NCBI GenBank assembly: GCA_018304295.1
Contig: JAGVWK010000008.1
Coordinates: forward strand, 1-50,513
Direction: 5' to 3'
From: Candidatus Micrarchaeota archaeon
Lineage (GTDB): Archaea; Micrarchaeota; Micrarchaeia; Anstonellales; Anstonellaceae
DNA: 50,513 nucleotides
Part shown: piece after piece, positions 8,157 to 12,169 of the stretch
Position numbering within the stretch: position 1 is the first letter of the stretch
How the letters are laid out: each line of letters opens with the position of its first letter
The notes under the pieces: model-generated
Databases searched by the model: none
What the model was told of the DNA's origin: nothing
The model's input: the letters and a program-made list of their open reading frames with translations, nothing else
Program-made: the position numbers and the translations under genes

Positions 8157-8309
8157 TAGCCCCGACCAGATTCGAACTGGTGTAACTAGGTTTCTTTCAA
8201 CCGTGACGATTTTCCCTTTTTCCGCCAACGCTTTTTCGCCCGTACCCGCCTGGAGGGCGAAAAAGGGTTGTTCAAAGCCTAGTGTCCTTGGCCGCTAGAC
8301 GACGGGGCT
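8157..8309 (-). tRNA. tRNA-Gln(UUG) with 80-nt canonical 37/38 intron (8192-8271)
   Basis: AGCCCCG/CGGGGCT acceptor stem with A1-U72, CTAGG/CCTAG anticodon stem, TTCGAAT T-loop; BHB with CUUU/AAAG central helix and CAACC/GGUUG intron helix; 73 nt after splicing. Confidence 0.93.
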
Positions 8310-10888: not shown

Positions 10889-10972
10889 GCACATCTGTTT
10901 TCCAGCCCTAAAATTTCCAGCCCCAAAATGCTTATATTTGTTTGTAGACAATATATAACAGTGGGAGTTCGG

Positions 10973-11551
10973 ATGACTAGCTCATCTTTCAGTATGCAGC
11001 CACTTACAGCCCAGAATAAGCCTCCAAATTCTGCCCCTCCAACCGCATTGCGCAGGCTCCTGCCCCTGCGCGAAGATCCGGCGCACGACAATCTTTGGCT
11101 TGTGAACAGGACAATGTCCATTCTTGAGCACGGCTCGCGCACGCACAACCTTTATGCTTTCCTGTCAAGGCTGTTTCCTAATGCAGTTTTGGCAGTGCGG
11201 TCAAATTTTCATGCGTATGACATAGCGAACCTTCCCACTGATCGCACACAAGCAGCCTTTATTTTTTCATTCATGGAAATATTGGGGAAAAATAAAACAG
11301 CGCAATGGCCCTGCCTTCCGGCTTTATCGGCAGAAGATGCCCTCGTCCTGTCGGGTCGCTTTGAAAAAATCTCTTCGGATGGGCTCGTAATTGCCACCCT
11401 TGCCCTGTTTTTCAAGATTGTGGAAGATCCCCGGAATGCAGCTGCCCGACTATACAAGACACAAATTCCGCTGGTTGCCGGCGCCACAACCGCTGAACCG
11501 CGACCGCCCGCCGCAGTGCTTGGGTTGCCTCCATCCACTCCTGCAATCTGA
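10973..11551 (+). CDS. Hypothetical protein
   Basis: Longest ORF filling the gap; no family recognised. Confidence 0.45.
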   Translation: MTSSSFSMQPLTAQNKPPNSAPPTALRRLLPLREDPAHDNLWLVNRTMSILEHGSRTHNLYAFLSRLFPNAVLAVRSNFHAYDIANLPTDRTQAAFIFSFMEILGKNKTAQWPCLPALSAEDALVLSGRFEKISSDGLVIATLALFFKIVEDPRNAAARLYKTQIPLVAGATTAEPRPPAAVLGLPPSTPAI

Positions 11552-11552
11552 G

Positions 11553-11669
11553 CTAAAAGCAGCATGAATCCTTAAACCCGCACTTTTTGCATACCGCGGC
11601 TTTGCTGCCCCCTATCGCATTCATCATTTCGCCGCACTGCGGGCACGGCTTGCAAATATCGGCTTCCAT
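11553..11669 (-). CDS. Small CPxCG zinc-finger protein (38 aa)
   Basis: MEADICKPCPQCGE...CKKCGFKDSCCF; starts 22 nt downstream of tRNA-Ile. Confidence 0.7.
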   Translation of the reverse strand: MEADICKPCPQCGEMMNAIGGSKAAVCKKCGFKDSCCF

Positions 11670-11690
11670 GCCACTCTTTCCAAACAAAAA

Positions 11691-11827
11691 TGGGCCGAAG
11701 GAGATTTGAACTCCCGACCTTTCGATTTCAAAAGTTTCTGCGCGCATGCGCAAAAATTTATCAGTCGAACGCTCCAACCAAGCTAAGCTTCCGTTAACAG
11801 TTGAAATTCAAATGTTAATACCGGCCC
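11691..11827 (-). tRNA. tRNA-Ile(GAU) with two introns (30 nt at 9/10: 11789-11818; 32 nt at 37/38: 11727-11758)
   Basis: Removing both inserts gives a 75-nt cloverleaf GGGCCGG TA GCTTAGCTTGGTTGGAGC G TTCGA CTGATAA TCGAA AGGTC GGGAG TTCAAAT CTCCT TCGGCCC A. Confidence 0.88.
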
Positions 11828-11875
11828 GTAAGTTGGCTGGACATCACGGACAGTTTCCTTATTTTGCTGCCCGTA

Positions 11876-12169
11876 TCAAATCTTATTTCTCTCGCATAAT
11901 TTATTAAGGATTGCTTGTCTCGTATCCTCAGAACGAATCCTAAGATTTTCTTCTTGTCCTTCTGGCGCAAATAGGCTGGACTTGTAGTAATCCCTTACCG
12001 CTATGTGCCCATCTGTCATCAAATCTGCGGCTGTTTCAGCCAATTCAACTGTAGGGAGCAGCGGCAATGTTTTTTTGAAATAGGCAACTGACTCATCAGC
12101 ATATCTGCCTGTCTTATAGCTTTTCTTCAAATCATCGGTGCACACAAGTGGGCTAACATTCATGCCCAA
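11876..12169 (-). pseudogene. LAGLIDADG-like endonuclease remnant
   Basis: ELAETAADLMTDGHI resembles one LAGLIDADG helix; 97 aa is too short for the rest of the fold. Confidence 0.5.

Follow-up and report, generated by a model that had tools for sequence, protein, structure and literature searches.

We identified a tRNA-Ile(GAU) gene of Candidatus Micrarchaeota (DPANN) that is interrupted by two introns, one of which lies between positions 9 and 10 of the tRNA, just after the acceptor stem. The gene occupies positions 11827 to 11691 on the minus strand of the window, by which we mean the whole 50,513-nt stretch of DNA that was analyzed. It is 137 nt long including the discriminator base A73, does not encode CCA, and is directly followed by a T-run (UUUUUG in the RNA). 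We put the probability at about 85% that this is a functional tRNA-Ile(GAU) gene, the only one found in the assembly, whose primary transcript contains two protein-spliced archaeal introns. That the gene is real and carries two introns, one of them at 9/10, had been proposed in an earlier note on this DNA and is confirmed here by the agreement between the junctions in orthologues and the tRNA called after removal of both inserts. It is an unusual example of an already-known kind of gene, with an intron at a site that has rarely been reported.

Exon 1 (GGGCCGGUA, 11819 to 11827, minus strand, as for all parts of the gene) supplies tRNA positions 1 to 9, i.e., the acceptor 5' strand, U8, and A9. 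It is followed by intron 1, a 30-nt insert (11789 to 11818) composed of a hairpin with the stems UAACA/UGUUA and UUGA/UCAA and of an invariant 3' end, ACGGAA; read from 11818 to 11789, the insert is exactly as quoted in the earlier note. The 30 nt of exon 2 (11759 to 11788, positions 10 to 37) comprise the D arm, G26, the 5' strand of the anticodon stem, and the loop sequence CUGAUA with the anticodon GAU. Intron 2 (32 nt, 11727 to 11758) lies at the canonical 37/38 site, with a central helix of relaxed type and a hairpin of 9 bp. The 36-nt exon 3 (11691 to 11726, positions 38 to 73) runs from the 3' strand of the anticodon stem through the variable loop and the T arm to the acceptor 3' strand, UCGGCCC, and A73. 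Once both introns were cut out by coordinates, ARAGORN recognized the remaining 75 nt as tRNA-Ile(gat) with a regular cloverleaf, in which exon 1 pairs at seven of seven positions with the 3'-end UCGGCCC, while with default settings no tRNA was called when either insert was retained. The fold of the 138-nt RNA had a z score of −3.63, and none of 200 shuffled sequences folded equally well.

Two standard finders, ARAGORN and the Rfam tRNA model at its gathering score, did not report the gene, which bears out the earlier suspicion that scanners may miss it. ARAGORN found 0 tRNAs in the whole window with default settings and, with the -i option, a bogus tRNA-Met with a 784-nt intron that shares the true 3' end. 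The Rfam model scored 27.8 bits, short of its gathering score of 29, and covered only model positions 5 to 66, because it took the CGG-AA preceding G10 for the end of the acceptor strand. According to the genetic code, tRNA-Ile(GAU) is the decoder of AUU and AUC. In this organism, the decoding of the two common isoleucine codons appears to rest on a gene unreported by two standard finders, and annotations of such genomes would look as if they had no tRNA-Ile. A tRNA-Gln(UUG) gene in the same window (8157 to 8309, minus strand) was overlooked as well; it contains an 80-nt intron at 37/38 (8192 to 8271) that is a member of a sequence family recurring in other tRNA genes, ARAGORN -i miscalled it as tRNA-Stop(tta), and Rfam at the gathering score returned nothing.

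The mature junction can be read directly from orthologues. We searched the DNA of 60 relatives and then of all 42 genomes of the family, and obtained exactly one match to exon 2 per genome in 41 of the 42, the matchless genome being 55% complete. The alignment extends across intron 1 in 11 of these 41 orthologues, namely, in the source genome (G000) and 10 genomes of a neighboring genus, g2, and begins only at the exon in the other 30; a relative from the same genus as the source (G001) is without the 9/10 intron. Among the 11 carriers the insert measures 30 to 35 nt and is always found at the same point. All intron-less loci that were read have UA joined directly to GCUUAG in the pattern GGGCC(G/C)(G/A)UA|GCUUAG, with GGGCCGGUA|GCUUAG at 11 loci of the family and 6 loci from other families, GGGCCGAUA|GCUUAG at three loci (G001 among them), and GGGCCC(G/A)UA|GCUUAG at six. 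Because the intron-less orthologues join exactly there, we conclude that the insert is an intervening sequence and that the mature junction is A9|G10. Cuts at 8/9 would yield the same product, since the intron ends in A and position 9 is likewise A, and motif geometry favors 9/10. Exon 1 is the same in all 11 carriers (9 of 9 bases) and exon 2 nearly so (29 or 30 of 30), in contrast to a variable intron interior; this combination indicates purifying selection on the spliced product. From these comparisons of sequences we infer that the transcript is spliced to give the mature RNA. No public RNA run was found to contain the stretch.

Within the source genome, tRNA-Ile(GAU) is the only one of 27 tRNA genes in which extra sequence separates position 9 from the D stem. 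These 27 consist of 19 genes with an intact T arm and perfect acceptor closure, in which the bases past position 9 were read by eye, plus 8 further 5' parts, also collected by eye. Many other tRNA genes of this genome are interrupted at other sites. Several break inside the T loop after GGUUCRA and continue into a shared long element (..CCUAGGGGGAACACAAGCGUUUCC..CCCCUGAGGUUUCA..), at C30:17343, C12:8344, C29:2956, C27:32010, and C9:28487; the element also occurs just downstream of the tRNA-Val gene on contig C22 and resembles a family of repeats or of T-loop introns. The tRNA-Val(CAC) gene on that contig (C22:16580-16689, minus strand) has an insert of ∼30 nt in the D arm, just after GUC, and is matched by Rfam at model positions 10 to 63 only. 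On contig C41 (328 to 668, plus strand), two near-identical tRNA 5' parts (GCAGGGG UA GCAAAGCUUGGUCAAAU..) lie at 328 and 453, with one matching 3' end downstream.

Judged from its sequence, the intron 1 splice motif is a relaxed 3-4-3 bulge-helix-bulge, a motif defined by two bulges of ∼3 nt on opposite strands, which contain the cut sites, and a 4-bp helix between them. The central helix is formed against the intron end ACGG by three G-C pairs (C4-G, C5-G, and G6-C) and a G7·A mismatch, and all 11 copies keep the three standard pairs. The bulges consist of U8-A9-N, where N is the first intron base (UA|U here), and of A-A-G10 (AA|G). Seven copies have U as that first base and four have A; its pairing with the A of ACGG is therefore not conserved, in keeping with a bulge of 3 nt. 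Outer helices, which are expected on both sides or, in relaxed forms, on at least one, are found toward the intron as a helix of 5 + 4 bp (92.9% of cells paired, with AU, GU, and GC at two positions) and toward the exons as a weak but invariant pairing of G1-G3 with C11-U13 (GGG/CUU; one G-C and two G·U). The TAACA/TGTTA helix, the CCGG:ACGG central helix, and the UA|U and AA|G bulges described in the earlier note are thus all present. Common to all 11 copies are exon 1 and the terminal ACGGAA, together with the hairpin, whose interior differs.

For the structure as a whole, 95.8% of cells pair, compared to 11 to 45% when the partners are slid by 1 to 3 columns. Shuffle controls for covariation were nonsignificant, with 43 of 500 reaching the paired share and 76 of 500 reaching the covariation score, because the majority of columns are constant; neither the central helix nor the exon-side helix varies among the 11 copies, and both therefore give no covariation signal. 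In four orthologues, RNAfold proposed a register shifted by one base, in which C5, G7, and U8 pair with ACGG and the bulges are 2 nt long, and we consider the 3-4-3 register more likely than the shifted one because it has three adjacent G-C pairs and canonical geometry. A blastn-short search for other copies of intron 1 in the genome returned nothing longer than 13 nt, and no sign was seen of membership in a repeat family of this genome.

The 37/38 intron was likewise proposed to have a relaxed motif, and a reading by hand agrees: its central helix is composed of C32-G, U33·U, G34·U, and A35-U, its bulges are U36-A37-A and A-A-A38, and its outer helices are the anticodon stem on one side and the 9-bp hairpin on the other. 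In orthologues, the insertion at 37/38 ranges from 0 to 124 nt, and several of them form a perfect helix at this site, ending in UUAG-CA. A conserved core of ∼50 nt (CCCUUUU..CUCCAG..GGG.ACG..AAAAGCGUU.ACGGAAAA) is common to anticodon-loop introns from different tRNA genes and from another genus, and looks like a transposed intron family; it occurs in the source genome at C8:14876-14945, C43:476-566, C12:8636-8702, and C41 near 600, and in intron 2 of the tRNA-Ile gene of G006 (L022).

The genome encodes enzymes suited to such introns. A 406-aa protein aligns over residues 14 to 406 with residues 1 to 387 of the epsilon2 endonuclease of ARMAN-2 (4FZ2_A; E = 1e-129, 436 bits), contains the Pfam N-terminal and catalytic domains, and is highly conserved in the catalytic-domain region of that alignment. 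Three-unit epsilon2-type enzymes are single polypeptides of ∼390 to 400 aa, with alphaN-alpha-betaC units, that align end to end with the ARMAN-2 enzyme; they are also marked by a catalytic Tyr-His-Lys triad and an ARMAN-specific loop bearing a lysine. By its full-length alignment the protein belongs to this type, so that the broad-specificity endonuclease anticipated for Micrarchaeota is indeed encoded here; it was found in 40 of the 42 family genomes. RtcB is also encoded, and RNase P RNA was detected at 97.3 bits. With the epsilon2-type enzyme and RtcB, the host would thus possess both an endonuclease for relaxed motifs and an RNA ligase. The ARMAN-2 enzyme cleaves strict and relaxed motifs at canonical and noncanonical sites in vitro (PMC3239211). 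The RtcB gene (C46:19693-22410, minus strand) is a single 958-aa frame in which the Pfam matches, 1-50 and 49-426, lie ∼1.3 kb apart, suggesting an intein. A second endonuclease-like gene of 168 aa is located on contig C18 (L032:1471-1977, minus strand); it has a Pfam catalytic domain (33.7 bits), its best match of solved structure is the alpha4-type enzyme of M. jannaschii (1A79; E = 2e-8, full length), and it appears to be an alpha-type paralogue beside the epsilon2 gene.

Several other explanations of the locus were weighed against two protein-spliced introns in a functional gene. The Rfam alignment, which reads CGG-AA-GCUU as positions 5 to 13, and the invariance of ACGGAA in 11 of 11 copies would both suit a splice register in which the intron lies inside the acceptor stem, with exon 1 reduced to GGGC, exon 2 starting from CGGAAGCUU, CGG-AA serving as positions 5 to 9, and A8 in the mature tRNA. 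Position 8 of tRNA is almost always U. Every intron-less orthologous locus that was read has U8, which would set an A8 product apart from each one; moreover, no 3-4-3 motif can be drawn for this register, because only four exon bases would precede the cut, and the constancy of ACGGAA is equally well explained by its role as a central-helix strand and bulge. We therefore regard this register as highly improbable. The same small weight is given to the idea that 9/10 is the site of an intron in a decaying or unexpressed copy, with a working Ile-GAU gene in the unassembled 16% of the genome. The assembly is indeed only 84% complete, and the search within it yielded no second Ile-GAU gene: exon 2 occurs once, with a next-best match of 12 nt. 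However, one copy per genome is the rule in 41 of 42 genomes, and in each of the 10 other carriers the intron-bearing gene is the sole match, including four that are 91 to 93% complete and, specifically, G032, which is 93% complete in 5 contigs. Near-invariant exons around a variable intron interior also speak against decay.

It is slightly less probable still that the 30 nt escape the splicing endonuclease and are kept as an extra arm or trimmed by another nuclease. The motif is relaxed, and the acceptor-closed fold does show a free-standing hairpin between A9 and G10. Within the tRNA core, however, an insert here would come between the D arm and bases U8 and A9; close relatives have the same exons without the insert, the constant part of the intron is exactly what a bulge-helix-bulge requires, and a broad-specificity endonuclease is encoded. 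An assembly or chimera artifact, a natural concern for a 49-contig metagenome bin, has a probability close to nil. Contigs from three other public runs, belonging to other studies, span both introns (X3, 11622-11900; X2, 11500-11811 and 11782-12000; X8, 11716-11881) with zero differences, and the identity of these independent contigs argues that the interruption did not arise in assembly; ten other genomes, in addition, have the same architecture.

The earlier note held that splicing at 9/10 would need the acceptor stem to be open. This is supported for the leaderless RNA, in which the fold with a forced central helix (−41.7 kcal/mol) was 6.4 kcal/mol less stable than the cloverleaf-like minimum (−48.1), and the fold with all three helices forced was 11.5 kcal/mol less stable. 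It has to be supplemented, however, for a transcript with a 25-nt leader: here the predicted minimum (−51.4) itself combines the leader helix with the central helix and the intron hairpin, compared to −48.6 for the forced acceptor-closed fold. The leader element in question, UCCAGCCAACU (11831 to 11841, minus strand, −14 to −4), is complementary to D-region positions 14 to 23, and its predicted target in exon 2, according to duplex and fold calculations, is AGCUUGGUUGGA (A14 to A23; 11773 to 11784, minus strand). The motif-forming fold appeared once 58 nt of the tRNA region had been made, leader included. In the other nine orthologues folded with a leader, it lay 0 to 4.1 kcal/mol above the acceptor-closed fold, or 0.2 kcal/mol below it in G028. 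The acceptor-closed fold was the more stable one in 7 of the 10 transcripts; the motif-forming fold was the minimum in the source genome and tied in G027, and in G028 it was 0.2 kcal/mol better with neither forced fold being the minimum. Little energy thus separates the two shapes in these models, and the motif-forming one does not come out ahead in every case.

A complementarity between the leader of the intron-bearing genes and the D loop is newly described here. In all 11 of these genes, an element lying 0 to 5 nt upstream of G1 is complementary (G·U allowed) to D-region positions 17 to 22 or 23. Its sequence is CCAGCC or CCAAUC with one or two further bases or, in a shorter form, (A/G)CCAG, and the rest of the leaders differ. 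Since the elements lie 0, 4, or 5 nt from G1 and were consequently out of register in the MAFFT alignment, duplex energies were compared instead. The leader:D-region duplex reached −10.4 kcal/mol or lower in 8 of the 11 intron-bearing genes and was weak in G016, G033, and G062 (−8.8 to −6.7 kcal/mol), while among the 28 intron-less genes only that of the same-genus relative G001 reached −10.4 kcal/mol. At position 17, the source genome alone has U, with A opposite in the leader; G028, G065, G034, and G019 have C17 with a leader G, and G032 has a mismatch. The association may be due in part to shared descent.

The promoters bear on the same question. In 6 of the 11 intron-bearing genes the TATA box begins at −44 to −51, as against −33 to −37 in most intron-less ones, which suggests longer leaders in the former. 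In the source genome, the A/T-rich TATA-like stretch AAAATAAGG (11857 to 11865, minus strand), 30 to 38 nt upstream of G1, would be a weak promoter candidate, at about −38/−40. If transcription starts ∼30 nt past the beginning of the box, as a general rule has it, the leader of the source gene, with its weak box, may be only 8 to 10 nt long and hold part of the element, and that of G028 may have only ∼4 nt.

As to how the RNA is cleaved, what the leader does, and in which order the steps occur, we infer the following course. Pairing of the leader with D-region positions 14 to 23 would block formation of the D stem and the acceptor stem, giving a cuttable shape in which the leader helix clamps the D arm and extends the outer helix of the intron 1 motif. 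Acceptor bases C4, C5, G6, and G7 would then pair with ACGG, placing the cut sites within the U8-A9-N and A-A-G10 bulges. A dimer of the epsilon2 endonuclease would cut both bulges and RtcB would join the exons, after which RNase P would take off the leader and the cloverleaf could form; intron 2 would be excised by the same enzymes through its relaxed motif at the canonical site. A more specific proposal is that the 9/10 intron depends on a leader that has coevolved to pair with the D loop, keeping the precursor out of the cloverleaf and freeing the acceptor 5' strand for the motif, that splicing of intron 1 therefore has to precede RNase P cleavage, that the promoter moved ∼10 nt upstream to accommodate the element, and that a relic persists in G001 after loss of its intron; we offer it tentatively, at somewhat below even odds. 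If leader pairing is real, it provides a simple account of how an intron needing an open acceptor stem is spliced, and the transcript would contain a built-in conformational switch ordering the steps of tRNA maturation.

The distribution of intron 1 among close relatives indicates that small introns of this kind turn over quickly. In a quick single-gene tree of ProRS for the two genera, these form separate clades, and carriers of the 9/10 intron are scattered patchily through g2. G016, the first g2 genome to branch off, has the intron, and G030, nested in a clade of carriers, lacks it. The sisters G034 and G036 have a common type of intron 2 and differ in the type of intron 1 and in the leader, a pattern that suggests either rapid turnover or recombination within the gene. 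The leader element kept without an intron in G001 fits a recent loss. The G016 orthologue (L035:1330-1600, minus strand) contains three introns, at 9/10, at 37/38, and in the T loop. As regards mobility factors beside the gene, a homing endonuclease was sought in the 97-aa and 293-aa upstream ORFs, and no Pfam family was detected in them at E values up to 0.1; the same was true of two overlapping ORFs at 10928-11565. A 38-aa ORF (11553 to 11669, minus strand), which starts 22 nt after the tRNA, has two CxxC pairs in a zinc-ribbon-like arrangement and only a weak YhfH-like Pfam match, below the cutoff.

Archaeal tRNA intron sites listed in the review literature include 3/4, 20/21, 22/23, 25/26, 29/30, 30/31, 45/46, 53/54, 56/57, and 59/60, "etc." (PMC4090602). 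The earlier note did not recall 9/10 among the common sites, and this stands insofar as the sections of the reviews compared here do not name it. A full-text search of the literature for "positions 9 and 10" returned nothing on tRNA introns, as judged by titles and the openings of abstracts, the slash form "9/10" being unsearchable. The closest system that we compared is ARMAN-2 (Candidatus Micrarchaeum acidiphilum), in which introns at 59/60 of tRNA-Cys and at 53/54 and 59/60 of tRNA-Pro are cut by the epsilon2 enzyme (PMC3239211). As far as this account goes, the two share the type of lineage, an orthologous three-unit endonuclease, relaxed motifs, several introns per gene, and genes that finders miss. 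In contrast to those ARMAN-2 introns that are named there as examples, which are in the T loop, the tRNA-Ile intron sits at the acceptor/D-stem junction and uses the acceptor 5' strand for its central helix. Such a site widens the range of substrates that an epsilon2 endonuclease presumably handles, and the 11 orthologues offer natural substrate variants for enzymology.

Thermoproteales also have multi-intron tRNA genes, including an intron at 3/4 (Sugahara et al. 2008, via PMC4090602). As summarized there, these resemble the present gene in having protein-spliced introns at many sites, up to three per gene, some of them near the 5' end and needing an unpaired acceptor stem, but Thermoproteales belong to a different phylum and use an (alpha-beta)2 endonuclease. 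In split and permuted tRNAs, a flanking leader and trailer build the bulge-helix-bulge (PMC3218864, PMC4033280). According to the parts of these articles that we draw on, sequence outside the mature tRNA supplies a helix beside the splice motif, as the leader would do here; the tRNA-Ile gene, however, is contiguous, and its leader would pair with its own D loop rather than with a second transcript. D-stem introns have been described in nuclear tRNAs of Cyanidioschyzon merolae (PMC3728597), and Asgard archaea have intervening sequences in the D arm that are missed by tRNAscan-SE, with the few acceptor-stem or junction cases in that census pooled as "other" (bioRxiv 10.64898/2026.10.13.758758). 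Although these cases come from other lineages, they share with the tRNA-Ile(GAU) gene, to the extent that these reports describe them, the placing of introns within the 5' third of the tRNA, where annotators have overlooked them, and an order of splicing that is tied to motif stability.
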